A stretch of DNA of 64,000 nt, from contig JANQOE010000039.1 in assembly GCA_028279245.1 (NCBI GenBank), positions 66,916 through 130,915 of the forward strand, in the 5' to 3' direction. The notes under the pieces are model-generated. The model did no database searches. It was given only the letters and a program-made list of their open reading frames with translations, and was not told the origin of the DNA. The DNA comes from Alphaproteobacteria bacterium (GTDB taxonomy: Bacteria > Pseudomonadota > Alphaproteobacteria > UBA6615). The position numbers were made by a program, and so were the translations under genes. Below are positions 5,033 through 35,686 of this stretch, one piece after another. The number at the start of each line of letters is the position of its first letter. The first letter of the stretch is position 1.

Positions 5033-5036
5033 AACC

Positions 5037-11804: not shown

Positions 11805-11829
11805 GGGACTCCCTCACTTCACGCTGGGT

Positions 11830-15373: not shown

Positions 15374-15558
15374 ACACGCGAATCACGGGAGATCTGGAAG
15401 TATTCGTAGGCAAGAGTTGCGCTCCGAGACACTCCGATTAGGTATTAGATTGCCCCTTGATTGAAACCGTTGATTTTTGCCAGCGGGGTCGGCACAAGGG
15501 TCGGGGTAGCGCAAGAAAGGTAGGCGCAGGGCCGTTGGCTACTGCGCCCAGTCATCGA

Positions 15559-16332: not shown

Positions 16333-16344
16333 CCCCCCAGCGCA

Positions 16345-17418: not shown

Positions 17419-18650
17419 GCAGCGCCCCAACCTGTCGCAGTTGCGGCGCAAATCTCAGATTGACCCTGATCGATCTCGGCCCCATGCCGTTGGCGAATGC
17501 GTTTCTCTCGTCAGCGGATGAGATCGCCGCGGAGCGCACCTACCCGCTCCATGCACGAGTTTGCGAACAGTGCTTCTTGGTTCAGGTCGACGACGTGGTC
17601 CCGCCGGAGGAAATCTTCACTGACTACGCCTATTTCTCTTCATATTCCGAAAGCTGGATCGCCCACGCCAAGGCCTACGCAATGCGGGTCACGGATCGCC
17701 TCAACCTGACCAAGGATAGCCTCGTTGTTGAGATTGCATCGAACGACGGATATCTGCTCCGTCACTTTAAGGAGGCGGGCATCCCGGTCCTCGGCATCGA
17801 GCCTGCGGCCAATGTCGCCGCCGCGGCGACGGCTCAAGATATCCCGACAGAAGTGCTGTTCTTTGGGAAGGCCACAGCCACCAGTCTGGCAAAGAAGCAC
17901 CGCCAGGCAAACTTGATAGTCGCCAACAACGTCCTCGCCCACGTCCCGGACATCAACGACTTCGTCGCGGGCATGCCCCAACTACTGGCCCCCGACGGAG
18001 TGGTCACACTAGAGTTCCCTCACCTCCAGAACCTGATTGAGCAAGTTCAGTTCGATACGATCTATCACGAGCACTTCTCTTATCTCTCCCTGTTCGCAAC
18101 CGAACGACTATTCGCACGACACAAGCTTCGGGTGTTCGACGTGGAGCAGCTCTCGACCCACGGCGGCTCGCTCCGGCTCTGGGTTTGCCATGCGGATGCC
18201 AAACACGCGCCGTCAACAGCCCTAGCGGAAACAAGGGCGCAAGAAGAAACCGCCGGACTCACCGACGTCCGTACCTACGCAGCATTCGGTGCAGCCGCGA
18301 ACAATGTACGCCTCGGGCTACGGCAGTTCCTGGACGAGGCCCGTGAGGATAGGAAACGGGTCGTTGCCTACGGCGCGGCAGCTAAGGGGAACACCCTGCT
18401 AAACAGCTGCCACGCCAGCACTGAAGACATCGAGTTTGTCGCCGACCTGAACGAGTTCAAGCAAGGCCGGCTGCTCCCCGGAAGCCACATCCCGGTTCGC
18501 GCACCACAGGCGATCTACAATGCCCGACCCGACTATGTTCTGATCCTGCCTTGGAACCTCACGGACGAGATAACGGAGTCCCTGGCAGACATCCGGGAAT
18601 GGGGCGCCCAGTTCGTTGTCGCGGTACCGCGGACAACGATACTTCCGTGA
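17415..18650 (+). CDS. NDP-hexose C-methyltransferase (TylC3/EvaC-like: N-terminal Cys4 zinc domain + class I SAM MTase + C-methyltransferase C-terminal domain)
   Basis: N-term CRSCGANLRLTLIDLGPMPLANAF...ARVCEQCFLVQV zinc-ribbon, ...YLLRHFKEAGIPVLGIEPAANVA... SAM fold, ~410 aa typical of sugar 3-C-methyltransferases; start overlaps rfbG stop. Confidence 0.75.
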   Translation: MSSAPTCRSCGANLRLTLIDLGPMPLANAFLSSADEIAAERTYPLHARVCEQCFLVQVDDVVPPEEIFTDYAYFSSYSESWIAHAKAYAMRVTDRLNLTKDSLVVEIASNDGYLLRHFKEAGIPVLGIEPAANVAAAATAQDIPTEVLFFGKATATSLAKKHRQANLIVANNVLAHVPDINDFVAGMPQLLAPDGVVTLEFPHLQNLIEQVQFDTIYHEHFSYLSLFATERLFARHKLRVFDVEQLSTHGGSLRLWVCHADAKHAPSTALAETRAQEETAGLTDVRTYAAFGAAANNVRLGLRQFLDEAREDRKRVVAYGAAAKGNTLLNSCHASTEDIEFVADLNEFKQGRLLPGSHIPVRAPQAIYNARPDYVLILPWNLTDEITESLADIREWGAQFVVAVPRTTILP

Positions 18651-19177
18651 TCTTTCAGAACACGCCGATCGCCGGCGTCACGCAGATCGAGTTCGAGCCC
18701 GTCGAAGACGAGCGAGGTAGCTTTGGTCGGGTGTTTTGCGAGACCGAGATGGCGGATCACGCCTTTCCTTTTGACATCCGCCAAATCAACCGATCGACCA
18801 ATCACCGCGTCCATACGCTTCGCGGACTGCATTACCAAGCAGCGCCAAAGCCCGATCCAAAGATCGTCCGCTGCACCCGAGGGCAGATCTGGGACGTCGT
18901 CGTCGACCTGCGCCCCGAATCATCCAGCTATCTGGCTTGGTACGGCACAACCTTGACGGCCGAAGCCAGCAACGCGCTCCTGATCCCGGGCGAATGCGCC
19001 CATGGCTACCTGACACTCAGCGACAACACCGAGCTGCTATACCTCATGGGCGAAGTCTACGTGCCAGAGCTCGCGCGGGGGGTGCGTTGGGACGATCCAG
19101 TGTTTGGCATCGATTGGCCCGCCACCCCGCAGGTTATCGCACCGCGCGACGCGGCTTATCCCGACTTCCGCCTGTGA
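18647..19177 (+). CDS. NDP-4-keto-6-deoxyhexose 3,5-epimerase-like cupin (RmlC/RfbC family)
   Basis: ORF 18551..19177; GTG 18647 overlaps upstream TGA; ...EDERGSFGRVF... and ...HGYLTLSDNTELLYLM... RmlC motifs. Confidence 0.75.
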   Translation: MIFQNTPIAGVTQIEFEPVEDERGSFGRVFCETEMADHAFPFDIRQINRSTNHRVHTLRGLHYQAAPKPDPKIVRCTRGQIWDVVVDLRPESSSYLAWYGTTLTAEASNALLIPGECAHGYLTLSDNTELLYLMGEVYVPELARGVRWDDPVFGIDWPATPQVIAPRDAAYPDFRL

Positions 19178-20091
19178 GAATTCTCATCACCGGCGGCACC
19201 GGCTTCATTGGCCAGCACGCGGTCGCCGCACTCGCGGATACGGAACACGAGCTGGCCATTGTCTCCAGAAACGCCCGACCCGACGAGGGTCGGACGCGCT
19301 TTGTACGCATAGATCTGCTCGATCCCGAAGCGCCTCGGTCAATGCTGCAAAGAGAACCGCCGACCCACCTGCTCCACCTCGCTTGGGAAACCGCGCACGG
19401 GCACTATTGGACCGCACCCGAAAACACGGCCTGGGCTGATGCGACCTGCAGGCTGTTGACCGACTTCTTCGAGTACGGCGGCGTGCGGGCGGTCGCGATC
19501 GGCACCTGCGCTGAATACGACTGGATGGTGCCAGGCAAGGCTGCCCTCTCTGAGTATAGCGCCAGACTGTCCGCGGATACGGCCTATGCCCGCGCGAAAC
19601 TGTCGGCCTATGAGCACGCGGAGAAGCTGCGCGCTAGTGGGGCGTCGGTGGCCTGGTGCCGGCTATTCTTCCCGTATGGGCGGTTTGAGCCCGCTGAACG
19701 CTTCATTCCCGCCGTGACCCGAGCGCTGATCCAAGGCGAACCAGCCAAGATGACCAACGGCCGGCAAGCCAGAGACTTCATGGCCGCCCGCGACGTCGGA
19801 CAAGCCTTGGCTGCCGTCCTCGCCGGCGATGTCTCAGGCGCCATCAACATCTCCAGCGGGTTTGCCACGCCATTGATCGATGTGGCCAGGGAGATCGGGC
19901 GCGCGTTGAACCGGGAGCACCTGCTGCGGCCGGGCGCGCTCCCCGGGCGTCCTGGCGACCCGGCATTCTTGGCTGGCGACAATCGGCGGCTAGCGACCGA
20001 GGTCGGCTTCACCCCTCGGATCACCCTGCCGGAAGGAATCGCAGACGCGGTCACATATTGGCGGGGCGAATTGCAGCAAACGGCACGTTAG
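19174..20091 (+). CDS. NAD-dependent epimerase/dehydratase family protein (probable NDP-sugar 4-ketoreductase)
   Basis: ORF 18937..20091; GTG 19174 overlaps upstream stop; ILITGGTGFIGQHAVAAL Rossmann motif, YxxxK (YARAK). Confidence 0.75.
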   Translation: MRILITGGTGFIGQHAVAALADTEHELAIVSRNARPDEGRTRFVRIDLLDPEAPRSMLQREPPTHLLHLAWETAHGHYWTAPENTAWADATCRLLTDFFEYGGVRAVAIGTCAEYDWMVPGKAALSEYSARLSADTAYARAKLSAYEHAEKLRASGASVAWCRLFFPYGRFEPAERFIPAVTRALIQGEPAKMTNGRQARDFMAARDVGQALAAVLAGDVSGAINISSGFATPLIDVAREIGRALNREHLLRPGALPGRPGDPAFLAGDNRRLATEVGFTPRITLPEGIADAVTYWRGELQQTAR

Positions 20092-20108
20092 TGCTAGACG
20101 GCACAGCT

Positions 20109-20891
20109 ATGTCTAATGGGGCCGGCGTGATAAGCATCGATTTTGAGGAGCAGGTCGTCATCGTGGCCGAAGACGGTGACCGGCGGGTCATCCCGCTCGC
20201 CTCACCCGAGGCCTTTGCGGCGGCGTCACGTGCGTGGCTCCGATGCGGCTGGGACGTGAAGCACGCCTATACCTTTAGCTGGCTCGGCCGCCCGATAATC
20301 CAGCTTCCCGAGGATATGGTCCGTGCCCAGGAGGCCATCTTCGCCGTTAAGCCGGACCTGATCATCGAGACTGGCATCGCCCATGGCGGCTCCCTCATTT
20401 TCTATGCGAGCCTTTGCAAGGCGATGGGGCGCGGCCGTGTCATTGGCGTGGACATTGAGATACGGCCGCACAACCGTACAGCCATCGAAGCCCACGAACT
20501 GTTCGATTACATCACGCTTTATGAGGGCAACTCCACCGACCCGCAGATCGTGAGCAAAGTCTCCGCCGATGCCGAGGGGGCCGAAACCGTGATGGTCTTC
20601 CTCGACTCCAACCACACCAAGGCGCATGTGCTGGCAGAGTTGGCAGCCTATGCCCCCCTAGTATCGGTCGGCTCTTACGTCGTTGCGGCCGACGGCATCA
20701 TGGAGCAACTCGTCGGTGCGCCAAGAAGCAGCCCCGATTGGGGAACGGACAACCCGCGGCAGGCCGCAATCGAATACACGGCGGCCAACCCCAACTACGT
20801 GATCTCCCAGCCCGACCTCACTTTCAACGAAGGTAACGTCAGTACGCCCGTAACCTACTGGCCGGACGGCTGGATCAAACGCGTCGACTAG
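20109..20891 (+). CDS. CmcI/cephalosporin-hydroxylase-family class I SAM methyltransferase (sugar O-methyltransferase-like)
   Basis: ORF 20058..20891, ATG 20109; ...PDLIIETGIAHGGSLIFYASL...VMVFLDSNHTKAHVLAEL... matches CmcI/MtfB-type rhamnosyl O-MTases. Confidence 0.7.
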   Translation: MSNGAGVISIDFEEQVVIVAEDGDRRVIPLASPEAFAAASRAWLRCGWDVKHAYTFSWLGRPIIQLPEDMVRAQEAIFAVKPDLIIETGIAHGGSLIFYASLCKAMGRGRVIGVDIEIRPHNRTAIEAHELFDYITLYEGNSTDPQIVSKVSADAEGAETVMVFLDSNHTKAHVLAELAAYAPLVSVGSYVVAADGIMEQLVGAPRSSPDWGTDNPRQAAIEYTAANPNYVISQPDLTFNEGNVSTPVTYWPDGWIKRVD

Positions 20892-20897
20892 GGCTCG

Positions 20898-21821
20898 TTG
20901 CAGATGCCGCTCGTTACGGTCGGCATGCCGGTATACAACGCCGCACCGCTACTCCCTCGGGGACTGGACTGTATCTGCAATCAGTCCTTCGAAGACATTC
21001 AGATTGTCATTTCAGACAACGCATCCACCGACGAAACACCCGACATCACCAAAGACTACGCAGCCCGAGATAGTCGAATCTCTTTACTCCGGCAATTGCA
21101 GAACGTTGGCATGATCGAGAACTTCGCCAAAGTTCTCGAAGCGGCACAAACCCCCTACTTCATGTGGCGCGCCCACGACGACACCTCGGACCTCGACTAC
21201 ATAAGGTCCCTGTACACCATACTCTCAGAAGACTCTCTGAGTGGCATGGCCGCCCCGCTTGTGGATCGCCGATCAATCGATGGGCGTATTAGCGCCAGGG
21301 CAAGGTTTCCGGAGCTCGGGCCTCACGAAACGCGGCGCCAGCGCGTCAGAAAGCTGTTGCGCACCGTTCAGGCGAGTTGGTTCTACGGCCTGTACCGCAC
21401 GGAAGAGCTTCGCGCTGCCTGGAAGCAGGTCACGACGCGTTACCCCTATATCTGGGCATTCGACCACTTGCTCCTGTTGCAGTTCGTCCTGAAAGCCCGA
21501 GTAAACGGCACAAACGATGCCAAATTCACCCAACTCGAGACCGGTGTCTCACAGGAGACCTACCGGCCCACCTCCGCCTCGAAGCAGCGGCAGATCGCCC
21601 GCTGCTTCCTCTCCTTTGCGTTGCATGAGTTGCGATCAAGCTCATCCTCGCCGACCGACCAGTTCGCTCTGGTATGGCCACTGCTCAAATACACCAACGG
21701 GAAAACCGTGAAGTACCGACGGATCGCTATAGGCATGGTCAAAGAGGTTGGCCGGATCGCCACCAGGTCGGGTGACCAGCCCAACACAAAACCACCTAAA
21801 CGCGTAACACGAAAGAACTGA
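20898..21821 (+). CDS. Glycosyltransferase family 2
   Basis: VTVGMPVYNAAPLLPRGLDCICNQSFEDIQIVISDNASTDET GT-A DxD region. Confidence 0.85.
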   Translation: MQMPLVTVGMPVYNAAPLLPRGLDCICNQSFEDIQIVISDNASTDETPDITKDYAARDSRISLLRQLQNVGMIENFAKVLEAAQTPYFMWRAHDDTSDLDYIRSLYTILSEDSLSGMAAPLVDRRSIDGRISARARFPELGPHETRRQRVRKLLRTVQASWFYGLYRTEELRAAWKQVTTRYPYIWAFDHLLLLQFVLKARVNGTNDAKFTQLETGVSQETYRPTSASKQRQIARCFLSFALHELRSSSSSPTDQFALVWPLLKYTNGKTVKYRRIAIGMVKEVGRIATRSGDQPNTKPPKRVTRKN

Positions 21822-21953: not shown

Positions 21954-23579
21954 GTGGTCAGAGAACCGATGCCAAATTCGGCCACATCTGCGTCGCCAAT
22001 CCACTGCCTGATCATCGATGATGACGAGGACGAGGTGATGCTGGTCGACTCTTGCTTGCGCGATATCCCTGATATCGCCTCGACCGTGACATGGCAGCCG
22101 AATCCCGAGAAGGCCATGGTTGAGCTTCAGTCAGGTTCGTTCAACCTCTGTTTCGTCGACTACTCACTCGGTGCGACCAACGGTTTGGAGTTCATCCAGC
22201 AGGCGGCGAGCGCCGGCGTCGGTATGCCGATGATCCTCCTCACCGGAGCGGACCATCCGGAGATCGAGGCTGCCGCCGCGGCCAGCGGTGCCGTCGATTT
22301 CGTCGCAAAGTACGATTTGTCGCCACCGACACTCGCCCGCGCCATCCGCTTCGCCGTTGCCGGCCAGAAGGAGGCGGAAGAGCTAAAGCGCAAGACGACG
22401 GAACTTGAGACCGCGGTCGAAGCGCTCGCCAATGAACGAAGCTTGCTCCAGCAGGCGATGGACCACACCAAGCATGGCATCGCCATGTTTGACGAGAAGC
22501 AGCGTCTTATCACCTCAAACGCGCGTTATCTGGAGATCTACGGGTTCTCACCGGATGTTGTCCGACCCGGAACCGACCTCACGGCCATCTTGCGCTACAG
22601 CATTTCCCTCGGGAACTATTCCCAAGAAGAGGGTCGACGCTTGTTGAAGGAACGCTCGCGACAAGCCGCATCTACCCGCCCCTCCACCTACCAGCAGCGA
22701 CTAAGCGATGGCCGAACAATCAGCGTCGATCATGCACCCATCAGCGGCGGCGGCTCCGTAACCACCTGTGAAGACATTACCGAAACACTTAAGAAGCAGC
22801 AGGAGTCGGCTGCCCTGGCCAGCAGCGCAGCTCTGGCGGATGCCGTGTTGGCCTCCAAATCGCGGTTCCTGTCAAACATGAGCCACGAGCTGCGGACTCC
22901 ATTGAACGCGATTATTGGTTTCAACGATATCTTTCGCCAACAGATCTTCGGGCCAATCGGCAGCAAACAATACGAAGCCTATGCCGAAGATATTGGCAGG
23001 AGCGCGGCAGCCCTCCTTCAGACAATCGACCAACTGCTCGACATGTCGCTGCTCTACAGCGACCAAACCGCACTCGACGAGCACGAATTCGAGCTGTCGG
23101 ACGCCCTTCAGCATGCCGTTCGTCTTCACGAGGGCGCCATCGAGGAAAAAGGCATCACCCTGAAGACGAACCTGGCTGCAGGCTTTTCCTTTTATGGGGA
23201 CGAAAACAAGATCACGCATGCCGTCGACTGTCTGCTCGACAACGCCATCAAGTTCAGCTACCCGGCCAGCAAGATCTGCGTCAACCTCGCAACAACCAAG
23301 GATAGTGGCGCACTCATTGAGATCTCAGACGCCGGTCCGGGAATACCCGCGGACCAGATATCAGATCTGCTGACACCATTCGAACAAGCGGAGGCCGCCG
23401 ATTGTCGATCCAATCACGGGTCTGGTCTGGGATTGCCCATCGCCTCGGGCTTGATCCGCCTACACGGTGGCGCTTTAGATATCTCAAGTGCGGAGGAAGG
23501 TGGTACAACCGTCCAAATCCTGCTTCCACCCGACCGGATCTCTTTCGCCGCCCGAGCGGCGGTTGGCCGCAGGAAGTAG
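21954..23579 (+). CDS. Hybrid sensor histidine kinase (N-terminal REC, PAS, HisKA, HATPase_c)
   Basis: IHCLIIDDDEDEV...D (REC), PAS core NARYLEIYGFSPDVVRPG..., H-box MSHELRTPLNAIIGF, G-boxes DAGPGIP / GSGLGL. Confidence 0.85.
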   Translation: MVREPMPNSATSASPIHCLIIDDDEDEVMLVDSCLRDIPDIASTVTWQPNPEKAMVELQSGSFNLCFVDYSLGATNGLEFIQQAASAGVGMPMILLTGADHPEIEAAAAASGAVDFVAKYDLSPPTLARAIRFAVAGQKEAEELKRKTTELETAVEALANERSLLQQAMDHTKHGIAMFDEKQRLITSNARYLEIYGFSPDVVRPGTDLTAILRYSISLGNYSQEEGRRLLKERSRQAASTRPSTYQQRLSDGRTISVDHAPISGGGSVTTCEDITETLKKQQESAALASSAALADAVLASKSRFLSNMSHELRTPLNAIIGFNDIFRQQIFGPIGSKQYEAYAEDIGRSAAALLQTIDQLLDMSLLYSDQTALDEHEFELSDALQHAVRLHEGAIEEKGITLKTNLAAGFSFYGDENKITHAVDCLLDNAIKFSYPASKICVNLATTKDSGALIEISDAGPGIPADQISDLLTPFEQAEAADCRSNHGSGLGLPIASGLIRLHGGALDISSAEEGGTTVQILLPPDRISFAARAAVGRRK

Positions 23580-23583: not shown

Positions 23584-23811
23584 CTAGGCAGACACACCCT
23601 TCGCTTGAAGCGCTTGCCGCACGGCCCCGACTGACCTGAGGCTCGTTATCTCGGGCATGGAGAACTTTACCGAGTAGGCACCTTCGATCGCCAGAACGAG
23701 TTCAAGGTGCTTCAGCGAGTCCCAGGACTTTGTATTTGCTGGGCTCGTTTCATTGCTGATCGACTCAATCGGTTCACGCAGTATGTTTGCGATCAGAGCT
23801 TCAATTTCCAT
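23584..23811 (-). CDS. Acyl/D-alanyl carrier protein-like (DltC/ACP family, 75 aa)
   Basis: ORF 23584..23979 but carrier domain starts at internal ATG ~23811: MEIEALIANILREPIESISNETSPANTKSWDSLKHLELVLAIEGAYSVKF... with DSL phosphopantetheine-attachment motif resembling DltC LDSFxxVELLLAIE. Confidence 0.7.
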   Translation of the reverse strand: MEIEALIANILREPIESISNETSPANTKSWDSLKHLELVLAIEGAYSVKFSMPEITSLRSVGAVRQALQAKGVSA

Positions 23812-23867
23812 TGTCGTCGGATCCCTATCCCTTAGAAGACTGCTTCCCGGACAGCCGCCAGCCCCAA

Positions 23868-25391
23868 TCAGAACTGATAGTAGAGGAATGTCGAATGGCT
23901 CTTTATCGATGCGATGGCTATGACAAACGCCACGGCCGTCGCCACCGCCCAGTTCGGCGATGCTCTCCAGAGCATCCACCGCCGTACCGGACTCTCTTCG
24001 GACGGTTGGGGGTCTGAACTGACCCAGTAGTTGCGCAGTATGTCCTGCGTATTCGGCAGCATCACGACAATCATCCCAAGCGCAAGTATCAAGGATAAGG
24101 CTGGAACGAGGTCCAACTGGACAATACCCGCCTGCACCAGACCGTCACCGAACAGGTAGGATACCCCCCACATGCTGGCCAATATCGTTCCGGCAACATC
24201 CAGATTCGGTGCTCGGAAGACGACCAGTGAGCTCACGACCACAGACATGGTGATCGCCCACCCGGCAAGCGGATGCAGCGTCGGTAGCTTGAACTCTCGC
24301 CAGCCATGGTTGATGGCCAACGCAAACCCATGGATCAAGCCATAGACCACCATGGTCCAACCTGCACCATGCCAAATACCCGCGATCAGGAAGGTAAAGA
24401 TGACCGGCCATGCGGCCGTTGCGAAAAAGCGGTGGACCGGACCGTACTCATTCGCCATCGCGCGGCGCAGGTTCTTCATCGCCATCGGCGTGAATAAATA
24501 GGTGGTGAAGAATCTGGTCATCGTCATATGCCACCGATGCCAGAAGTCTTGAATGCTTGTCGCCTTGAGCGGCGAGTTGAAATTGAGCGGTAGCTTTATG
24601 CCGAACAGGTATCCAAGACCGACCGCCATATCGGAATACCCGGAGAAGTCGAAATACAGCTGGAGTGTATAGCAGAGGGCTCCCACCCAGGCGGTAAGTG
24701 GTTCGATCCCCCCACCAGCGGCAACGCCGCCAAATGCCTCATTCGCAAAGGGGGCGATCGTGTCGGCGAAAACGACTTTCTTGAACATCCCCATACAGAA
24801 GATGGTCAGCCCAATGATCACCCGCGACGACGAGAACGCACTGTCGTCTCGGTCCTTCATCTGCCGGAAGAACTCGCTCTGCAGCACGAGAGGACCTGCC
24901 GTTACACAAGGGAAGAACGTCGCGAACAGAGCATAACGGTCAAAAGACGGACGTTCTGCCGTTCCATTGTAGGCCTCAACCAAGAAGCCTATCTGAATGA
25001 ACGTATAGAACGAGATCCCGACAGGAAGGATAAGGTCGAGGTGACTAAAGCCGGTTCCGGCGACCCCGTTCACTGTCTCGATGAGGAAGTTCGTGTACTT
25101 GAAATAGCCAAGAGCAATGATGTTGCCCGCCACAGCAGCAATCAACAGAAGCTTAGCCGTCGCCTGCCGGTTTCGAAGCTCAACAATTGCGTTCGCAACC
25201 GCGAAGTTCGCCAGCACTGACGCCGCCAGCACTGCAACTAGCAGAAGGCTCCAGTGCGCGTAGAAAGCGAGTGACGCGGCGGCCAGATACGGATACACGG
25301 CCCGCCAGCCACCAACTCGATGGATGATGAGAAAGCCGATATAGGCAAGCGGGAAGAAGACGAATATGAACTGAAAAGAATTGAAGACCAT
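23868..25391 (-). CDS. MBOAT family membrane-bound O-acyltransferase (AlgI/DltB-like)
   Basis: ORF 23868..25523; start refined to ATG 25391 (MVFNSFQFIFVFFPL, canonical MBOAT N-terminus); multi-TM, conserved His region ...WHRWHMTMTRFFTTYLFTP... Confidence 0.85.
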   Translation of the reverse strand: MVFNSFQFIFVFFPLAYIGFLIIHRVGGWRAVYPYLAAASLAFYAHWSLLLVAVLAASVLANFAVANAIVELRNRQATAKLLLIAAVAGNIIALGYFKYTNFLIETVNGVAGTGFSHLDLILPVGISFYTFIQIGFLVEAYNGTAERPSFDRYALFATFFPCVTAGPLVLQSEFFRQMKDRDDSAFSSSRVIIGLTIFCMGMFKKVVFADTIAPFANEAFGGVAAGGGIEPLTAWVGALCYTLQLYFDFSGYSDMAVGLGYLFGIKLPLNFNSPLKATSIQDFWHRWHMTMTRFFTTYLFTPMAMKNLRRAMANEYGPVHRFFATAAWPVIFTFLIAGIWHGAGWTMVVYGLIHGFALAINHGWREFKLPTLHPLAGWAITMSVVVSSLVVFRAPNLDVAGTILASMWGVSYLFGDGLVQAGIVQLDLVPALSLILALGMIVVMLPNTQDILRNYWVSSDPQPSEESPVRRWMLWRASPNWAVATAVAFVIAIASIKSHSTFLYYQF

Positions 25392-25396
25392 ATCGA

Positions 25397-26683
25397 CTAT
25401 CGCCTGTCTACCGGCCGTGCAACGGGCCTTCCTGCGGTGGCATGCCCCCGATAGCCATTCAGAACACGCTGGAGGCAGTCCGGGTTCGAATGTTCCGCAT
25501 CGATGTACATCTCGGCCGTACATCCAAGATCATGGGGGTTGAAACTGCCGATGACCTTCAGGCCGAAGCGCTCCGCAAACCCGACTGTCAATTGCTCGAT
25601 TTCGGCCAAACCCGCCATATAGGCCGATCCTTGAAGTGAGTCGTAGTAGATCGGGTTGAACGGCGGATGTGCCAGGTACACTTCAACGTCCCGATCCTGC
25701 AGAAACTGAAGTAGCATCTCGAACTGCGCAACGCCGGCCGAGTCGATCTTCGGCGGGTCGTTGCGGCGTTGCGCCGCAAACGCCAAGGCGCCCGATCTCG
25801 CAAACTCCCGCGTGAACAACGCGTCATGTTCCCGAGACCAAATGATCGACCCATCCGGGCGAAGTATGTCGAGGGTATCGTGCTTATCCGCGTCGGTGAC
25901 GTGCGGCAAAACAGGTGCCGCAAACCACCGTTCTACATTGTCTTTCAAGACCACAAGGGAGATCGCATTACGTAGTTGCGGCACGGGTATCAGTTCACTT
26001 ATTGGCCGCCGGTCGATGTCCAGCCGGCGCGACATATCGCGGTAGTCCGGGATCGTCGGGACCCAGAGAAAGTCGGTGCGGTCCTCTACAGGGGTGAACA
26101 GATTGTCCCTGATGGTGATGATCATTGCTTGCGGCAGACGATTGTTCCGGACGAACATCTCCGTCACCGACAGCATGTCCTCGTAGTAATCTCTGTGAAC
26201 ATGTGCATTGTACATGTTGACTTCGGGGATCAGCCCAGCATGGCCTTCCTGCCAGTGACTGGCGCCGAGGACGGCCACGTCGGGTGTCTCCGAAAGCGAA
26301 GCAATATGCTCGCGACGAAGGGCCCGGCTCTCAATGTTCAGATCAAAGGTCGCGTAACTGCGGCCCGACGCAAGTACGTCCGCCACCTCGACCGCAGTGT
26401 TCGGGTTGAACAACAGCGGCGCGAATCTGGCGTTCCCCCCAGCAACCGCGACCAGGCCAAGAACCAGGAAGATGCCGAGCAGGAACAGATACAATACCGG
26501 GTTGGCAACGATGCTTGGATCGACTTCATGAGCATCGACGATCCCGATCTTGGCGAGGTCCTCCTCGCGTCGACCGATCTCGGCCCGCGGCAACAATCGT
26601 CTGTCCGGGTGATTTTCAGAACGGAGATTGTCGTCTCCGAAGTTGGAGTCAGATGTGGACACGTCCTGCCCTTGAGTACCCAA
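25397..26683 (-). CDS. Membrane-anchored periplasmic protein, candidate DltD/AlgJ-like (SGNH-like) partner of MBOAT
   Basis: Cytoplasmic N-term, single TM PVLYLFLLGIFLVLGLVAVAGG, ~340-aa periplasmic domain with VAVLGASHWQEGH block; position immediately upstream of MBOAT mirrors dltD/algJ logic; homology not verifiable by eye. Confidence 0.5.
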   Translation of the reverse strand: MGTQGQDVSTSDSNFGDDNLRSENHPDRRLLPRAEIGRREEDLAKIGIVDAHEVDPSIVANPVLYLFLLGIFLVLGLVAVAGGNARFAPLLFNPNTAVEVADVLASGRSYATFDLNIESRALRREHIASLSETPDVAVLGASHWQEGHAGLIPEVNMYNAHVHRDYYEDMLSVTEMFVRNNRLPQAMIITIRDNLFTPVEDRTDFLWVPTIPDYRDMSRRLDIDRRPISELIPVPQLRNAISLVVLKDNVERWFAAPVLPHVTDADKHDTLDILRPDGSIIWSREHDALFTREFARSGALAFAAQRRNDPPKIDSAGVAQFEMLLQFLQDRDVEVYLAHPPFNPIYYDSLQGSAYMAGLAEIEQLTVGFAERFGLKVIGSFNPHDLGCTAEMYIDAEHSNPDCLQRVLNGYRGHATAGRPVARPVDRR

Positions 26684-26902
26684 AGCCCTGCGAGCCTAAG
26701 AAGCCATCAAAGGCTCAATGAAGCGTAAACGTTAACCTTTTGAAGGTTGTCGGTAGGGGCTAGGAATCACCCATTCGTTGGCCGCGACTTGAAGGGTCCC
26801 AAGGTCGCCAGGTCCAGGAACACACCGTACCCTAATCCTAGGAAGCCCTATGCACGTCAGGTGTCTGCAGTCCTCCGGACTTTCGACCCGTCCGATAGCC
26901 GC

Positions 26903-28867
26903 CTAATCCACTTCCTGGTGCCGCACGGGCAGGACAACACTGAAAACTGCCCCCTCGTCAAGAACGCCGGCCGCATCGATGGTGCCGCCGTGCCACTCAG
27001 CAATCTTCCGGCACGTCGCAAGGCCGATCCCCGTACCTTCATACTCATGGCGACCGTGGAGACGCTGAAATATGGTGAATATCTGGTCCTTGTATTTGTT
27101 ATCAAAACCGATGCCGTTGTCTTCGACCCGGATCTGACAATAGCCTGGTCTTTCCGCCGGCAATGCCGTCTCAACGCGAACAATCGGCTTCACATCCGGC
27201 TTGCCAAACTTCAACGCGTTCCCGATCAGGTTCTGCAGAAGCTGGCGCATTTGCGTTGGGTCAGCATCAATCTTGTGGAGTGGACCAAGGACGACCTCCG
27301 CATTGGCCTCCTCAATCCGAATCTGCAGGTCCGAGACAACTTCCGCTGCAATCTCACCAAGATCGGTCTCTTCAAACGGCTGCGCCTTTGTCGTCACGCG
27401 CGAGAAATTCAGCAGGTCGTCAATGAGCTGCCGCATCCGTCCAGCGGCATTCTGCATCCGATCCACATATAGTTTGCCTTCGTCGGGCAAATCACCGGCG
27501 AACTTCGTTGCCAACCGGCCACCAAACGCTTCGATCTTGCGGAGCGGTTCCTTGAGATCATGGGACGCGACATGCGCGAAGTCCTGGAGTTCCCTGTTCG
27601 AGATCTCAAGCTTGTGCATGTACTCTTGCACCTGCGCTTCCCGGCGCTCAAGATCCGTTATGTCCTGATAGGTCGCAATTGAGCCGCCGTTCGGCATGGG
27701 CTCATGCATGACGGCGATGACTCGCCCATCCCTCAAATACTGCTTAAGGGTTGTCCGTTCACGTTTCTTCGCTTGGTCCGGCCGCGCCGCGATAGCTTTT
27801 TTGGCATCCTCCTCCGTATAGTTCCCGATAGAGACACTGTATTCCATTATCTCTCGGAGCCTTATGCCTGGCTTAACGATCTGCGGATCAAATCCATACA
27901 TTTCGAGATAACGACTGTTACAGACCAGTAGAACCTGTTCGTCGTCGAACATGCACAGGCCCTGGATCATATTGTTTAGGGCGGTATCAAACTGGATGTT
28001 GGTTTTACGCAATTCATGCGTCATCCGCAGAATATCGAGCTCGCGCTTCTTCAACTCGGTGATGTCCGAGCGAATGCCGACAATCCCACCATCTTCTGTA
28101 CGCTTCTCGTGAACGCGTATCCAGCGACCGTCAGCCAACTGCATGTCGTAGGGCGCATCTGGGTTCTTATGCTGCTTTAGGCGCAGCTCAAAGAACTCAT
28201 CGGGATCCATGCTCCCGATGTTGAATCCACCTCGATCAACGCCAGCGCGAAGTAGATCCTCAAAGACCGCGCCTGGAAGAATCAGGTCGGAGACGTGCGA
28301 GTTATACTCAACATACTTCCGGTTGTAGAGGACCAACCGGCCCTCCGCATCATGTAGGCAAAACCCGTCCGCCATCCCCTCCAACGCGTGGGTCAAGCGT
28401 TGCCGCGCCAACTCGGCGAGGGCGCCAGCACCCAGCCGGGACGCATCCGCTGGATCGGCCGGCCGTACGGTTTCGACCAGAACACCATCTTGCAGGCAAC
28501 GGCGCGTAACGATGAGCGCCTGGCCGGCGGAAGTCGTAAACTGAAACGTCTGGACCGATCCCGGAACCAGCCGCTCCTTCGCCTCGGTCACCTGACGCTC
28601 GGCATAATCCGGATCACCGTGGCGCCGCATCATCTTGATCCGAATCAGTGTATCCAGGGCTACGCCCGGATACGCCTCCTTATCCGCATAGCGGAAGAAC
28701 GTCTTGTACTTCTCGTTGCAGGCCACCAGAGCAAGGGCCGGATCGAACACCGCGAGCCCAACATCTGCGCCCTCAAGCACGTCGGCCAGCGAGTCGAAGC
28801 TATCGGAGAACGCCGGGGAGTCGCCCAACGCAGTTGATGCGTGTTTATCCGCGTTGTCCGTTCTCAT
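26903..28867 (-). CDS. Cytoplasmic multi-PAS sensor histidine kinase
   Basis: Several PAS cores (one nearly identical to that of 21954..23579 kinase: NSRYLEMYGFDPQIVKPG), H-box ASHDLKEPLRKI, HATPase G-boxes; no TM, no REC. Confidence 0.85.
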   Translation of the reverse strand: MRTDNADKHASTALGDSPAFSDSFDSLADVLEGADVGLAVFDPALALVACNEKYKTFFRYADKEAYPGVALDTLIRIKMMRRHGDPDYAERQVTEAKERLVPGSVQTFQFTTSAGQALIVTRRCLQDGVLVETVRPADPADASRLGAGALAELARQRLTHALEGMADGFCLHDAEGRLVLYNRKYVEYNSHVSDLILPGAVFEDLLRAGVDRGGFNIGSMDPDEFFELRLKQHKNPDAPYDMQLADGRWIRVHEKRTEDGGIVGIRSDITELKKRELDILRMTHELRKTNIQFDTALNNMIQGLCMFDDEQVLLVCNSRYLEMYGFDPQIVKPGIRLREIMEYSVSIGNYTEEDAKKAIAARPDQAKKRERTTLKQYLRDGRVIAVMHEPMPNGGSIATYQDITDLERREAQVQEYMHKLEISNRELQDFAHVASHDLKEPLRKIEAFGGRLATKFAGDLPDEGKLYVDRMQNAAGRMRQLIDDLLNFSRVTTKAQPFEETDLGEIAAEVVSDLQIRIEEANAEVVLGPLHKIDADPTQMRQLLQNLIGNALKFGKPDVKPIVRVETALPAERPGYCQIRVEDNGIGFDNKYKDQIFTIFQRLHGRHEYEGTGIGLATCRKIAEWHGGTIDAAGVLDEGAVFSVVLPVRHQEVD

Positions 28868-28938: not shown

Positions 28939-30243
28939 CTAGCGGACCGGCTGCAGAGAGGCCGGCAAGTGTAGGGCGATCTCCGGAAACAGCCACACAA
29001 TGAACAGCATCAAGATCATTATCAGGAAGAGCGGCGCCGCAGCCTTTGCCACGTAGAAAATGTTGTGGCCGGTCATGGACTGGATCACGTAGAGATTGAA
29101 CCCAACCGGTGGAGTGATCTGGGCAGTTTCCACCAATATGACAAGGAATACGCCAAACCAGATCGGATCGATGCCGGCCCCCCTGATCATCGGTTCAACA
29201 ATCGCCATCGTCAGGACAACCGCGGAGATCCCGTCAAGAAACATGCCGAGTATGATGTAGAACACACCTAGCAACAGCAGCAGTTCACCCTGGGTGAGAT
29301 CCAATCCGGCAATCGCTTCGGCGACACCACGGGGCACCCCCGTGAACCCCATCGAAAGAGTCAACGTGGCGGACCCGGCAAGAATGAGAGCGATCATCGA
29401 CGATGTTTTTAGCGCGCCCGTCACCCCCTCGATGAACGAAGTCAATGTCAGGCTGCCATCAAGATATGAGATGACGAGCGCGCCCAACACGCCCACCACA
29501 GCCGCCTCGGTCGCCGTAAGGAGGCCCGCGTAAATCGAACCAAGGACAGACACCACAAGAACGACAAGCGGCAGCAAAGATACAACGGAGACGGCACCAT
29601 CCGCCTGCGCCTCCTCCGGGCCCGGAAAAGAGGCTCGCCCCAAAACCGCGCTACTTGCCACGTAGATCATGAACAGTGCCGCGAGAACCAGCGCCGGACC
29701 AATGCCGGCCATGAAAAGTTTGGTAATGGACTCGTTAGTCGTCACTCCATAGACGATCAGAATGATCGACGGCGGCATCAACAAGCCGAGCGTACCAGCG
29801 CCAGCCAGGCTCCCCACGGCGAGCTGTTCCGGATACCCCCGTCGCCGCAGTTCGGGAAGGGCTATCTTACCTACTGCCGAAACTGTCGCGGCGGACGAGC
29901 CGGAGATTGCTGCGAACAGGGTACACCCGGCAATGTTCACGTGCAGCAGGCGCCCGGGAAGCCGCCGTACAATTGGGCTTAACCCGCGAAACAGGGATTG
30001 CGAGACGCTAGAGCGGGTGAGGATTTCTCCCATCCAGATGAAGAGCGGCAGGGCCACCAACGGCCAACTCGATAGAGCGCTCCAGACAGCGGTCGCCATC
30101 GCGTCAACGGCAGGTCTCGCGGTAAACAACTCGATGCCGATGAGACCCACAGCCAACAACGCCAGCCCGACCCATACGCCTGCGCCCAACAAACCGAGCA
30201 AGGCCAACAAGTAGACGGCCACAACGAGTGTGTTGCCACTCAC
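28939..30243 (-). CDS. dctM: TRAP transporter large permease subunit
   Basis: ORF 28939..30372; start refined to GTG 30243 overlapping dctQ stop; 12-TM DctM family sequence. Confidence 0.85.
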   Translation of the reverse strand: MSGNTLVVAVYLLALLGLLGAGVWVGLALLAVGLIGIELFTARPAVDAMATAVWSALSSWPLVALPLFIWMGEILTRSSVSQSLFRGLSPIVRRLPGRLLHVNIAGCTLFAAISGSSAATVSAVGKIALPELRRRGYPEQLAVGSLAGAGTLGLLMPPSIILIVYGVTTNESITKLFMAGIGPALVLAALFMIYVASSAVLGRASFPGPEEAQADGAVSVVSLLPLVVLVVSVLGSIYAGLLTATEAAVVGVLGALVISYLDGSLTLTSFIEGVTGALKTSSMIALILAGSATLTLSMGFTGVPRGVAEAIAGLDLTQGELLLLLGVFYIILGMFLDGISAVVLTMAIVEPMIRGAGIDPIWFGVFLVILVETAQITPPVGFNLYVIQSMTGHNIFYVAKAAAPLFLIMILMLFIVWLFPEIALHLPASLQPVR

Positions 30244-30773
30244 CGCCCCGCCTCGACGACGCGCGCGCCAGGTAACCCGCCGAAGAAGCGCGTGACCTGC
30301 TCCCATAGCGTTTGCCCGATGGCAACCACCAGCAAGCCCGACCCAATCGACAGACCGAGCTGCGGTATCCACAGCGGTGTCGCATCCGCGCCTTGGCTCA
30401 AGTCGCCGATCATGAACGAGATCCAGGCCAACCGGCCCATAGCAATGGCCAGAGCCCCAGCGATGACCAGACCAACTGCGAGCACCACCAACTCAACGAC
30501 ATTCCGCTGAGGGTCGCTCAATCGATCTGCAAACAGCCGGATCCGAATGTGCGCGCCCTGACGAAAAGCGTAGGCCAGGGGCAGAAAGAAGCTGTTGGCC
30601 ATGGCATAGCCGGTCAGCTCGGGAATCCCGGCTGTGGTGAGGCCCGACCAGCGCCCAATCACCTGAACGATGACGAGCCCCGCAACGCCTACCAGGCACA
30701 CCCCAGCAAGCAACGCACCGATTTCATAAAAAGCTCTGAGCCAGGTGGTCAGCCGGTCACCCATCCGAACCAC
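30240..30773 (-). CDS. dctQ: TRAP transporter small permease subunit
   Basis: 177 aa, 4 TM, positioned between dctP and dctM. Confidence 0.8.
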   Translation of the reverse strand: MVRMGDRLTTWLRAFYEIGALLAGVCLVGVAGLVIVQVIGRWSGLTTAGIPELTGYAMANSFFLPLAYAFRQGAHIRIRLFADRLSDPQRNVVELVVLAVGLVIAGALAIAMGRLAWISFMIGDLSQGADATPLWIPQLGLSIGSGLLVVAIGQTLWEQVTRFFGGLPGARVVEAGR

Positions 30774-30799: not shown

Positions 30800-31831
30800 C
30801 TACCGGTTGGTAGGCACCAGCGTCGCCGGACGCACTGGCTTGGCTGCACCGTTTCCGTTTCTGAACGTCTGCAGAATCTGCGCCCCGGACGCGCCGGCGT
30901 CAGCGAGCCATTCCTCGGCCATTTGCTGGCCGATCGAGGTCACACCGTCCTGCAGCGCCGCACCTGCTGGCTGAACCTGCATGCCATTCTCGGCCAGCAT
31001 TGTCAGGTGCTGCCCGGCGAGTTCCTCCGACCGGGACCAGCCAAACGACTCAGCCATCGCCGCCGCGCCGCGCACAACCGCCTGTGTTTCAGGATCAAGC
31101 CGATCCCACATCCGCTTGTTCACGAATACCATATTCTTCGGCAGCCAGGCCTGTAGATCGTAGAAGTGGGAAAGATGCTCCCAGACCTTGCGGTCCACCC
31201 CAGTGGCGCCGGATGTGATGAGCGAGTTCGCAACCCCGGTGGCCAGTGCCTGCGACAACTCGGCCGTCTCAATCTGAGTCGGCGTCGCCCCCATCAACTC
31301 GGCAAGACGTGATGTCGCCGGATTGTAGGCCCGGAACCTCATACCTTGCATATCCGCCACATCATCGATGGCTCGATCCGAATACAAACCCTGGGGCGGC
31401 CAAGGCGTTGCATACAAGAACACCAGCCCTTGCTTCGCCAGCTTCTCGACAATCGCCGGCTTGGATGCTTGGTAGAGCCGCCACGCGTCGTCGTAACTCG
31501 TCGCTAGGAACGGCACCGCATCGACGCCGAAGATGGCATCTTCATTCGACAGCGCGGACATAAGACGTTCGCCGATCGGCGCTTGGCCGGTCTGCACCGC
31601 CCGCTTGATCTCACCGCCAGCAAACAGCGAACCGCCGGCATGAACCACGATCTCCAACTCTCCATCAGTCGCCCGACCAACCGCCTCGGCAAACATCACC
31701 GCTGTTTGTGAATGGAAGTTCCCCGGCGCATACGCCGTCGGCATGTCCCACTTTTCGGCCGCGGCCGGCAAAGATCCAGCGGCAAACACAACGCTGCCAA
31801 GTAGAGCAGCGAAGACCCGTGCGATACCCAT
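30800..31831 (-). CDS. dctP: TRAP transporter substrate-binding protein (DctP family)
   Basis: ORF 30800..31870; start refined to ATG 31831 (MGIARVFAALLGSVVFAAGSLPAAA signal peptide, aaggaag SD). Confidence 0.85.
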   Translation of the reverse strand: MGIARVFAALLGSVVFAAGSLPAAAEKWDMPTAYAPGNFHSQTAVMFAEAVGRATDGELEIVVHAGGSLFAGGEIKRAVQTGQAPIGERLMSALSNEDAIFGVDAVPFLATSYDDAWRLYQASKPAIVEKLAKQGLVFLYATPWPPQGLYSDRAIDDVADMQGMRFRAYNPATSRLAELMGATPTQIETAELSQALATGVANSLITSGATGVDRKVWEHLSHFYDLQAWLPKNMVFVNKRMWDRLDPETQAVVRGAAAMAESFGWSRSEELAGQHLTMLAENGMQVQPAGAALQDGVTSIGQQMAEEWLADAGASGAQILQTFRNGNGAAKPVRPATLVPTNR

Positions 31832-31992: not shown

Positions 31993-32958
31993 ATGTCAAA
32001 CGGGGATTCCGCCGGTTTCAGCCGTGGGGCCGTGGCTGCTCTGCTCGCGATTGGGGTTTGCTCGGCCCTTGCCGTGCCGCAACTAGCAGCACTTTTTTCA
32101 CCGCTCGTGTTTCCGGCGCTGTTCCTGCTCGTAACGCTCTCGCTGTCCCTTACGACAGATCGTCCAACGGCCATTCTCGCCAACCCGGAACCGGCTGTCT
32201 GGGGAATCATGCTCTGGCAGCTCGCCTTCCTGCCTCTCCTCGTCATCTTGATTGGTTGGGCCATCGGTTTGCCGCGCGACCTCCACCTGATGCTGCTCGT
32301 GACGGCCGCGTCGAGTTCGGTTTTTGCCGCCCCTACGATCGCCAACCACTTCCGCCTGAACGGCCGGCTCCCGATAAATGGCATGGTCGTTTCAACGTTC
32401 TTGATGCCGGTCGCCCTCCTGGTCTTCGATCAGGCACTCGAAGGCGAGGCATTGGACTTTCCAATCAAGGAATATGTATTCCGTGTCGCGCTGTTCCTGT
32501 TTCTGCCGCTCGGGATTTCGATACTCATCAACCGGCTGGTGAAGCGCCTCCCGAAGCAAGCATCTGAAACGTCGTACAACTTGCTGCATGCCGGCGCCGT
32601 CATATCACTTCTTGTCTTCGGCATCGGCATCATGGATGGCGTCCACCATCACATCCAAACAGACCCTTCCAGGGTGTTATCCCTTTTCCTGGTCGCCGTC
32701 GGCTTCGGCGTCATAGCCATTGCCGGTACAGCGTGCCTGTTTTGGTCGTTGGGGCGCGACCTGCTGCTATCCGCAATCATTCTCTCGGTCCACCGAAACG
32801 TCGGGCTCACCTACGCGGTGATTGGGACTGCGATAGCCGCCGATTTCGCAGTCTATGTGGCGATATTCCAGATCCCGATGTTCCTCTCACCATTGTTCAT
32901 TGGCTTGGGCCAAGCAGCCTACCATCGTCCCAGAAAGCCCATGGCTGAAGCCGCCTAA
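31993..32958 (+). CDS. Integral membrane transporter, bile acid:sodium symporter (BASS)/AEC-like
   Basis: ~10 hydrophobic helices, two-repeat architecture; family assignment by overall pattern only. Confidence 0.5.
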   Translation: MSNGDSAGFSRGAVAALLAIGVCSALAVPQLAALFSPLVFPALFLLVTLSLSLTTDRPTAILANPEPAVWGIMLWQLAFLPLLVILIGWAIGLPRDLHLMLLVTAASSSVFAAPTIANHFRLNGRLPINGMVVSTFLMPVALLVFDQALEGEALDFPIKEYVFRVALFLFLPLGISILINRLVKRLPKQASETSYNLLHAGAVISLLVFGIGIMDGVHHHIQTDPSRVLSLFLVAVGFGVIAIAGTACLFWSLGRDLLLSAIILSVHRNVGLTYAVIGTAIAADFAVYVAIFQIPMFLSPLFIGLGQAAYHRPRKPMAEAA

Positions 32959-32964: not shown

Positions 32965-34467
32965 GTGGTCGTGGCGAACCAACCAATCAGGATCCTGCTC
33001 GTCGAAGACGACGAGGACGACTACATCCTAACGCGCGGTCTCATCCAAGAGATTGATGGAACCGACAGGTTCGAGTTGCGTTGGGTGGCCGACTACAAGT
33101 CCGGCCTCGAAGCTCTCGCACGCTGCGAGGCAGACATCTGCCTCGTCGACTATTATGTCGGCGGGAAAAACGGATTGGATCTGGTGCGGGAGGCCCGGCG
33201 AAATGGCTGCGACGTGCCGACGATACTTCTGACGGGAAGGGGCGATAGAGAAATAGACATCGCTGCGATGGAAGCCGGCGCGGCCGACTACCTGGAGAAA
33301 ACCGAACTTAGCCCACGTCTCCTGGAGAGAACAATTAGATACGCCATTGCAGAAGCAAAGGACCGTCAGACAATTCTAGAGCGCGGAGCTTTACTTCAGG
33401 CAACGCTAGATTATACGGGAGCCGGTATCGCGACATTTGATCGAGATATGAACCTGCTAGCTCATAACGATAGTATTCTAAGCATGCTCGGCATGACGGC
33501 TGACAGCCCAGAACAGTCAGCTGATCAGAAAGAATCGCGCATCGGCCAGAATATCTCAACAAGCCTCGACCTGGTTCGGCACACACGCGAAGGACGCGAG
33601 ATCATCGCGCGGAGTGGCAGAGTCATAGAAGTTCGCAGCAACAAGATGCCAAACGGTGGCCTGGCAACGATCTGTATCGACATAACGGACCGAAAGAAAG
33701 CGGAAGAAATCCTGCTCAAGTCAAAGAACGAAGCGGAAGCGGCGAGCCGGGCCAAATCAGAATTCCTTGCGAATATGAGCCACGAGCTTCGCACGCCGCT
33801 CAACGCGATTATTGGTTTCACCGAAGTCATGATGGCCCATAACACATCGGTCTCGGAGGAGTCGGCGCACAGTTATCTGGGACACATCCTTGATAGCGGT
33901 AAGCACCTTCTCGCTGTTATCAATGACATACTGGATGTCTCTAAGATCGAAGCCGGCAAGTTTGAGATCGACGAAATTGAACTGGATCCCGCAGAAGTCG
34001 TACTCAGCAGCATCCGGCTAATCTCGGAGCGAGCCAAGCAGTCGAACGTCACAGTCACGACTAGTACGCAACCAAGAACCCGCGAACTCTATGCCGACGA
34101 ACGAGCCCTAAAACAGATACTTTTGAACCTGCTCTCCAACGCCATCAAGTTCACGCCTGCTGGTGGTTCCGTTTCTGTAGACCTCGTCACCAGCGACTGC
34201 GGCAGCTTGGATCTTGTCGTGGCTGACACAGGCATCGGCATTGCGGAAGCGGACATAGAGAGGGTTTTGACACCATTCTACCAGATCCAATCGACGCTCT
34301 CCCGGTCGCACCAGGGCACCGGCCTAGGACTGGCCCTAGTTAAGTCGCTGGCAGAGCTGCACGGGGGTAGCGTATCGATCGCCAGCAAGGAGGGCGCTGG
34401 CACGCAGGTGCGGGTTCGTTTTCCCAAGCATCGGGCGAACCTCGCAACGCACCGCGCCTCAGCCTAG
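32965..34467 (+). CDS. Hybrid sensor histidine kinase (N-terminal REC, PAS, HisKA, HATPase_c)
   Basis: IRILLVEDDEDDYILTRGLI...D (REC), PAS with KMPNGGLATICIDITDRK, H-box MSHELRTPLNAIIGF, G-box GTGLGL. Confidence 0.85.
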   Translation: MVVANQPIRILLVEDDEDDYILTRGLIQEIDGTDRFELRWVADYKSGLEALARCEADICLVDYYVGGKNGLDLVREARRNGCDVPTILLTGRGDREIDIAAMEAGAADYLEKTELSPRLLERTIRYAIAEAKDRQTILERGALLQATLDYTGAGIATFDRDMNLLAHNDSILSMLGMTADSPEQSADQKESRIGQNISTSLDLVRHTREGREIIARSGRVIEVRSNKMPNGGLATICIDITDRKKAEEILLKSKNEAEAASRAKSEFLANMSHELRTPLNAIIGFTEVMMAHNTSVSEESAHSYLGHILDSGKHLLAVINDILDVSKIEAGKFEIDEIELDPAEVVLSSIRLISERAKQSNVTVTTSTQPRTRELYADERALKQILLNLLSNAIKFTPAGGSVSVDLVTSDCGSLDLVVADTGIGIAEADIERVLTPFYQIQSTLSRSHQGTGLGLALVKSLAELHGGSVSIASKEGAGTQVRVRFPKHRANLATHRASA

Positions 34468-35629: not shown

Positions 35630-35686
35630 GTTCAAGACAAAAGTTGGCATAGATGCCGACCCTGTCGCCGGCGCGCCCCTGACGGG

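Follow-up and report, generated by a model that had tools for sequence, protein, structure and literature searches.

An apparently loader-less copy of a conserved alphaproteobacterial Dlt-like cassette with a probable role in transferring carrier-bound amino acids to the envelope

Among the described MBOAT-SGNH pathways (MBOAT, membrane-bound O-acyltransferase), only the Dlt system uses a carrier protein, whereas the PatA/AlgI-type systems have been described as carrier-free and acyl-CoA-dependent (PMC12148441). An acyl-Tyr intermediate forms on a FxYxxF motif, which belongs to DltX in the Dlt system and to the fused C-terminus of the enzyme itself in PatA-type MBOATs, and this fused shuttle has so far been described in MBOATs that use acyl-CoA and work without carrier proteins (PMC12148441). 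The biological role of a further group of enzymes, the amino acid:[carrier-protein] ligases (aa:CP ligases), was still called unknown in a 2022 review (PMC9437257). Here, a 64 kb stretch of alphaproteobacterial DNA from the 134-kb contig JANQOE010000039.1 was analysed ("the window"; all coordinates are those of the whole stretch), which carries three consecutive genes for a membrane-anchored protein (X), an MBOAT and a small carrier protein (CP). It seems rather likely that the locus represents a conserved Dlt-like cassette of Alphaproteobacteria in a copy without a loader, its carrier most probably being charged by an enzyme whose gene lies elsewhere. By analogy with the described systems, the cassette probably transfers an amino acid from the carrier through the inner membrane to a component of the envelope.

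The listing of open reading frames (ORFs) in the window gave three consecutive minus-strand ORFs, in agreement with the three co-directional genes reported in the initial annotation of this DNA:

25397..26683, minus strand: X, a 428-aa ORF with a TTG start.
23868..25391, minus strand: the MBOAT, 507 aa with the N-terminus MVFNSFQF, starting at an internal ATG (25391) of the ORF 23868..25523.
23812..23867, minus strand: the spacer of 56 nt between the MBOAT and CP genes, which in 66 related loci is the site of a gene for a ~400-aa ligase resembling an aminoacyl-tRNA synthetase (aaRS).
23584..23811, minus strand: CP, 75 aa, starting at an internal ATG (23811) of the ORF 23584..23979.

The stop of X and the start of the MBOAT are separated by 5 nt, and the stop of the MBOAT and the start of CP by 56 nt. 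The start of X differs by gene caller (421 aa in the NCBI call, 399 aa in the Logan call and 428 aa from the TTG). The CP gene had been described as hidden in the 131-aa ORF 23584..23979; the two do overlap, but the gene is not hidden, since the Logan and NCBI calls both give 75 aa. It is also a gene in its own right rather than only a part of the longer frame, because 75-aa orthologues with the same N and C termini exist, which confirms its start. A megablast search of the region against a plasmid collection gave no match.

A scan of GTDB species representatives yielded 80 further loci, all from alphaproteobacterial metagenome-assembled genomes, in which gene content was counted by tblastn and ORF clustering; the counts given below are over 82 MBOAT-bearing loci. 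The hosts include Hyphomicrobiales, Kiloniellaceae, Neomegalonema, Aestuariivirga, Anderseniella and Roseibium. The usual order around X homologues is X, MBOAT, the ~400-aa ligase and the 75-aa CP, with the ligase being present in 66 of the 82 loci. This ligase is a class-II aaRS paralogue that matches the aa:CP ligase Bll0957 (3MEY) at E 1.8e-33 and type-2 seryl-tRNA synthetase (SerRS) at E 1.9e-30. Because its score against NF005479 (1.4e-47, 162 bits) is below the 357-bit cut-off and about as good as that against archaeal-type SerRS (145.7 bits), the cassette ligase is, judging by these scores, a separate subfamily of SerRS-derived aa:CP ligases.

In ten of the database loci, as in the window, CP directly follows the MBOAT with no ligase in between, and these ligase-less loci are scattered over several places on the MBOAT tree. 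Eight of the ten (L017, L033, L039, L040, L041, L052, L060 and L077) have a ~734-aa AMP-binding protein encoded within 10 kb, of which two examples are:

L017:1290-3494: adenylation enzyme of the non-ribosomal peptide synthetase (NRPS) type.
L040:13460-15664: NRPS-type adenylation enzyme.

These enzymes match PF00501 at ~1e-85 to 1e-90 and score 442 bits against TIGR01733 (cut-off 317 bits), compared with 302 bits against the DltA model NF003417 (cut-off 476 bits). Their PDB matches are NRPS adenylation domains, with DltA being far more distant. They also have an N-terminal extension of ~240 aa, which is without a Pfam match in the eight loci. The specificity code, which was read by alignment to a GrsA-PheA fragment (the fragment reproduces the published DAWTIAAICK plus K517), is DVWHFSLVDK in seven of the eight enzymes and DVWTFSLVDK in that of L077. 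The former is the exact code of the Ser-activating domain of EntF (PMC3795760). The aaRS-like ligase and the NRPS-type enzyme never occur in the same locus, and this distribution is, on sequence evidence, one of non-orthologous replacement, in which one amino-acid loader took over from another. Since one loader type was replaced by the other, the system seems to need a charged carrier, and what it transfers is probably serine or some other small amino acid.

CP itself scores 20.8 bits against PP-binding, i.e. exactly the gathering score, has weak matches to acyl carrier proteins (ACPs) in NCBIfam and finds its best PDB match in the putative ACP 2LML (E 1.2e-7). Its Ser32 (in WDSLKH; codon 23716..23718) aligns with the phosphopantetheine serine of the ACP DSL motif and is invariant in all 74 of 74 orthologues, whether a ligase is linked or not. 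Ser32 is thus the predicted phosphopantetheine site, and the original assignment of the 75-aa protein as a carrier with a conserved serine is borne out by the domain score, the alignment and the orthologues together. In every sufficiently complete locus, the CP gene lies 3' of either the MBOAT or the ligase gene. Of 60 ligase-type CPs, 55 have an MPE motif (F(S/T)MPEI), which may mark a ligase-docking surface; it is missing from all eight CPs of loci with the NRPS-type (ANL) enzyme, which have SMSEM, AINEV and similar sequences instead. The CP of the window shares 80-83% identity with its counterparts in ligase-bearing relatives and retains the motif of ligase-type carriers as FSMPEIT.

The MBOAT had been regarded as DltB-type, which is right as far as its core is concerned: besides matching Pfam MBOAT (3e-17), it aligns to DltB (6BUG) over residues 120-368 with an E value of 1.2e-30. 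Its score against the DltB equivalog TIGR04091 (8.5e-52, 176 bits) is below the 375-bit cut-off, and it is not a plain DltB, as the FxYxxF shuttle known from PatA/AlgI-type enzymes is fused to it. It exceeds DltB in length by ~100 aa, has two extra C-terminal hydrophobic helices (428-446 and 478-496) and ends in FLYYQF, i.e. the FxYxxF acyl-shuttle motif, of which FxYYxF is the form seen in this family. Across 79 loci, H288, H341, F502, Y504 and Y505 do not vary, while F507 is kept in 78. Going by this conservation, His341 (WHG) and His288 (RWH) are predicted to be catalytic and Tyr504 to be the acyl-Tyr site.

Protein X gave no sequence match in Pfam, NCBIfam or the PDB, and a profile of its family found zero matches among PDB sequences. 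The family comprises at least 436 close homologues, all unnamed and none with Pfam domains, while the profile retrieved 2097 sequences at E <= 1e-3 and 96 at E <= 1e-30 from 1.84 billion representatives. An AlphaFold model (41 homologues; pLDDT 87.8, pTM 0.81) has DltD as its nearest solved structures, which is the kind of fold, rather than an unrelated one, that the initial annotation had hoped to find by structure prediction. A disordered N-terminal tail and a single transmembrane helix (~62-87) are followed by a predicted periplasmic catalytic domain. In this domain, G140, A141, S142, W144, Q145 and E146 are invariant, with the GAS triplet lying directly after a β-strand, and D395-x-E397-H398 is at least 90% conserved ahead of the last helix. 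The GAS(H)W and DxxH motifs match blocks I and V of SGNH enzymes, of which block I supplies the Ser nucleophile; Ser142 (GASHW), Asp395 and His398 (DAEH) form a candidate triad. Model and motifs together argue for X being a DltD-like acyl- or aminoacyltransferase of the SGNH fold. Further away, ~1100 X-like representatives were found at E <= 1e-10, of which P0317-P0383 (~355-390 aa) border on Pfam DUF1574 (PF07611); these distant relatives of ~360 aa fall just below its gathering threshold (28.4 vs 29.1 bits), and X of the window itself gave no match to DUF1574. This family is an uncharacterised one of the SGNH clan, with no known function or solved structure (PMC9487903).

A search of the whole 64 kb by tblastn with both the aaRS-like ligase and the ANL enzyme of the relatives gave no match, and Pfam scans of the 30 other long ORFs of the window, which encode transporters, sugar and exopolysaccharide (EPS) enzymes, regulators, aminotransferases and an RND pump, revealed zero adenylating enzymes. 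This upholds the initial observation that a DltA-type ligase is absent from the window. A permissive tblastn search of the 56-nt spacer found no trace of a ligase either, so the gene is cleanly absent. Misassembly was considered as the cause and rejected, since an identical junction is present in a Logan contig (L086) of the same organism from run SRR20820731. A look for a ligase of this organism in the database led to P0123 and P0124 as the nearest ligases, both of which stem from samples other than that run. The nearest relatives, L088 and L003, do carry the ligase, L088 being the closest ligase-bearing locus (81% identity in the MBOAT and 83% in CP). Because the nearest relatives and the majority of related loci have the ligase, its absence from the window is, on this comparison, a derived state, i.e. 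a secondary loss of the ligase gene. The idea that the cassette lacks a ligase by design does not hold, as 66 of the 82 loci have the aaRS-like ligase and another eight the NRPS-type enzyme.

A fourth protein (T), which had been missed in the initial annotation, and several sensor kinases seem to belong to the system or to its control:

31993..32958, plus strand: T, a 321-aa polytopic membrane protein of the BASS fold.
26903..28867, minus strand: PAS-PAS histidine kinase of 654 aa, directly upstream of X (Pfam domains are those of the identical gene in L086).
21954..23579, plus strand: hybrid response-regulator/PAS/histidine kinase, convergent with CP (Response_reg, PAS_7, HisKA and HATPase_c; the same in L088).
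32965..34467, plus strand: second hybrid response-regulator/PAS/histidine kinase (Pfam), adjoining T.

T has the ten helices of the BASS fold and is homologous (E 4e-35) to an N-terminal domain that is fused onto X in 11 loci; it is a separate gene in 50 loci, and the two forms never occur together. Because of this fusion, T would be a further component of the system that works with X. The pair of T and a hybrid kinase is also found in L003 and L005. Kinases orthologous to the PAS-PAS enzyme are located upstream of X in L001-L005, and the histidine-kinase cluster is present in 79 of the 82 loci, so that the PAS-PAS histidine kinase is probably the regulator of the cassette.

The sequences show which genes are present, their folds, the conserved residues and how the two loader types are distributed; from these we infer the chemical steps that follow, the amino acid (serine being favoured), the acceptor and a trans-acting loader. 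A cytoplasmic loader (usually the SerRS-derived aa:CP ligase, sometimes the NRPS-type adenylation enzyme with the serine code) would activate a small amino acid with ATP and thioesterify it to the phosphopantetheine arm on Ser32 of CP. The charged carrier would then dock on the MBOAT, of which His341 would pass the aminoacyl group across the membrane to Tyr504 in the enzyme's FLYYQF tail. The tail would subsequently hand the group to Ser142 of the membrane-anchored X, which would esterify a periplasmic or envelope acceptor, with T acting together with X and the PAS histidine kinases controlling the system. In the window, the loader gene between MBOAT and CP would have been deleted, with no substitute in the 64 kb. 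It is proposed, tentatively and as a possibility rather than a probability, that the cassette family as a whole O-aminoacylates, and probably serylates, some component of the alphaproteobacterial envelope or periplasm with a modular loader (aaRS paralogue, NRPS domain or unlinked enzyme), and that the copy in the window is active and charged in trans. An unlinked ligase might then serve as the trans-acting loader; a more speculative candidate is the housekeeping class-II SerRS, by way of a thiol-aminoacylation side activity.

Several points weigh against this reading. The candidate triad of X was read from sequence conservation, and no conserved gene for synthesis of the acceptor was found near the cassette. 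The best overall PDB match of the NRPS-type enzyme is the second adenylation domain of LgrA, which we take to activate Gly, so that the amino acid is uncertain. Moreover, the characterised aa:CP ligases favour Gly or Ala over Ser (PMC5370406). The trans-acting loader is an assumption, none being visible in the 64 kb. Finally, a small response regulator (~150 aa) that sits between the kinase and X in L001-L005 has no orthologue in the 64 kb by tblastn, the window having a gap of 219 nt (26684-26902) at that site, which could indicate erosion of the locus.

These last two points also speak for the rival that survives best, namely that the locus is a decaying relic, in which the pathway has been non-functional since the deletion of the ligase and the loss is too recent for X, MBOAT and CP to have degenerated. 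That such cassettes do erode is suggested by three related loci in which only a part of the ligase is left:

L020:6392-6688: ligase fragment, C-terminal 98 aa only, between intact MBOAT and CP genes.
L058:12660-12998: ligase fragment, N-terminal 113 aa only, between intact MBOAT and CP genes.
L042:13018-13839: ligase fragment with residues 128-400, which might be a frameshift or an assembly error.

Although these fragments look like snapshots of ongoing ligase loss, X, MBOAT and CP of the window are full length and have kept every conserved catalytic residue. Tajima relative-rate tests against ligase-bearing relatives showed no significant acceleration (p 0.075-1.0), albeit that such tests are insensitive to a recent loss of function, which must be counted among the points against an active cassette. 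Furthermore, L005 (70-78% identical) has the same loader-less arrangement and is likewise intact, which suggests that this state is either maintained or recurrent. A relic is therefore considered unlikely; because the three proteins are intact and not fast-evolving, charging in trans is favoured, and the loader for the CP of the window most probably lies elsewhere in the genome.

Whether an amino acid is the donor at all was considered as well, since the initial annotation had proposed charging by fatty acid synthesis (FAS) enzymes. CP could be loaded with an acetyl, malonyl or fatty acyl group by a FAS transacylase or an AasS-type synthetase, leading to O-acylation of a polymer. The best family matches of CP are indeed ACPs of the fatty-acid type, and the window has no linked enzyme that activates amino acids. 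However, both loader types, which are spread over 74 related loci, activate amino acids, and the high identity of the window CP to the ligase-type CPs and its retained MPE motif likewise oppose a change of donor. Because the loaders of the relatives both activate amino acids, the donor is most likely an amino acid rather than a fatty acyl group from FAS, and a different donor appears quite improbable. Slightly less probable still is an MBOAT that uses acetyl-CoA directly as in PatA/AlgI, with CP being dispensable or having another role, since, even though the fused shuttle is so far described in carrier-free enzymes that use acyl-CoA (PMC12148441), the CP gene is kept in every sufficiently complete locus with an invariant Ser and the loader was swapped, not merely lost, in eight loci, which points to selection for charging of CP.

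The surroundings of the cassette further include a transporter and a polysaccharide cluster:

30800..31831, minus strand: DctP of a TRAP transporter (L086/L090 gene calls and Pfam).
30240..30764, minus strand: DctQ of the TRAP transporter (same evidence).
28939..30243, minus strand: DctM of the TRAP transporter (same evidence).
10659-21821: polysaccharide cluster, with glycosyltransferases of families 4 (GT4) and 2 (GT2), a WecG/TagA-type transferase, a co-polymerase of the Wzz-GNVR-P-loop tyrosine-kinase type, a nucleotidyltransferase, epimerase/dehydratases, a dTDP-sugar isomerase and two methyltransferases.

DctP occurs in 37 of the 82 loci and DctM in 34, i.e. a TRAP transporter adjoins the block of kinase and cassette in ~40% of them; its substrate might be the compound that is sensed or attached. 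The composition of the polysaccharide cluster suggests that it makes a methylated deoxy-sugar polymer. While Pfam scans confirm that the flanking kinases and the EPS-type cluster exist as initially noted, an EPS-type cluster adjoining the cassette was not found in the relatives compared (L001-L005 and L088). With the adjacency not being conserved, EPS was rejected as the indicated acceptor. What stands of the initial annotation as a whole is the Dlt-like, uncharacterised module, whereas its independence of a ligase, the FAS charging and the EPS link are not supported.

Some other genes of the window are recorded here for completeness. On the minus strand, 60083-62758 encodes an 891-aa protein with CoA-binding, succinyl-CoA-ligase-like, ATP-grasp_5 and GNAT domains, an arrangement typical of Pat-type protein lysine acetyltransferases and of ADP-forming acyl-CoA synthetases. 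Two plus-strand ORFs of 238 and 310 aa (35054-35770 and 48272-49204) have no Pfam match at E <= 1e-5. A glycosyltransferase of family 20, of the trehalose-6-phosphate synthase type (E 1e-108), is encoded at 8673-10037 on the plus strand, with genes for a sugar ABC transporter and a LacI regulator (702-6116) upstream of it.

Envelope aminoacylation alters surface charge and elsewhere controls resistance to cationic peptides and interaction with the host, while we know of nothing comparable for these marine and soil Alphaproteobacteria. The interest of the present locus rests on the findings at the level of the family, the window itself being the loader-less form in which the chemistry is inferred. 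The aa:CP ligases, which have been characterised structurally and biochemically since 2010, are found here within a transfer cassette resembling DltB/DltD, which gives them a concrete and testable role; if the O-aminoacylation reading is true, the missing physiological role of the SerRS-derived aa:CP ligases would be supplied. The swap from an aaRS-type to an NRPS-type loader is in effect a natural experiment on the exchange of carrier-charging modules, and it predicts the group that is transferred. The cassette family moreover joins two designs, i.e. the carrier protein of Dlt and the fused-shuttle MBOAT that has been described with acyl-CoA (PMC12148441).

No description of the X-MBOAT-ligase-CP cassette was found among the open-access full texts searched, which fits the earlier claim that the module is uncharacterised. 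The cassette is a real, coherent system, and an undescribed version of MBOAT-SGNH envelope acylation. It resembles the Dlt system of Firmicutes (DltABCDX, for D-alanylation of teichoic acids) in having a small carrier with a phosphopantetheine Ser (predicted from sequence in CP, as the counterpart of DltC), a DltB-homologous MBOAT with a predicted catalytic His, a predicted membrane-anchored SGNH partner (X being closest to DltD structures) and the FxYxxF shuttle motif. It differs in that the MBOAT itself bears the shuttle, on two extra helices, whereas Dlt has a separate DltX microprotein, which is lacking in the window, in that the MBOAT stays below the DltB equivalog cut-off, and in that X has no detectable sequence similarity to DltD or to the DltD family PF04914. 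The usual loader is a class-II aaRS paralogue instead of an ANL enzyme; in the window this paralogue is absent, and a DltA-type ANL ligase is likewise lacking within the 64 kb. The gene order (X-MBOAT-(loader)-CP), the Gram-negative alphaproteobacterial hosts and the extra BASS-fold partner differ as well, and what is transferred is probably a small L-amino acid such as Ser. The dra locus of Bordetella is a dltABCD-like system of the Dlt type, with a carrier and an MBOAT, in a Gram-negative bacterium; its ligase is of the canonical DltA type and its gene order A-B-C-D. To our knowledge, AlmG of the AlmEFG system, which had been cited as a parallel in the initial annotation, is not an MBOAT.

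With the O-acetylation systems PatA/PatB and AlgI/AlgJ/AlgF/AlgX, the cassette shares an MBOAT of ~500 aa that ends in FxYxxF on two additional transmembrane helices, an SGNH partner and the Gram-negative envelope. Their combination of an acyl-CoA donor and no carrier is not seen here, the CP gene being linked in all sufficiently complete loci. The aa:CP ligases Bll0957, Bll6282 and Atu2573 and their carrier proteins are reportedly those of Mocibob et al. 2010 and 2013. Like them, the cassette ligase is without a tRNA-binding domain and is encoded beside a small CP, a pairing that has been lost from the window and kept in the 66 loci with a ligase homologue. The neighbourhood of Atu2573 consists of an ACP, a Rossmann enzyme, Atu2574 and lipopolysaccharide genes (PMC2922099), whereas the cassette ligase has an extra N-terminal region of ~100 aa and is surrounded by the MBOAT, the DltD-like X and the BASS protein.

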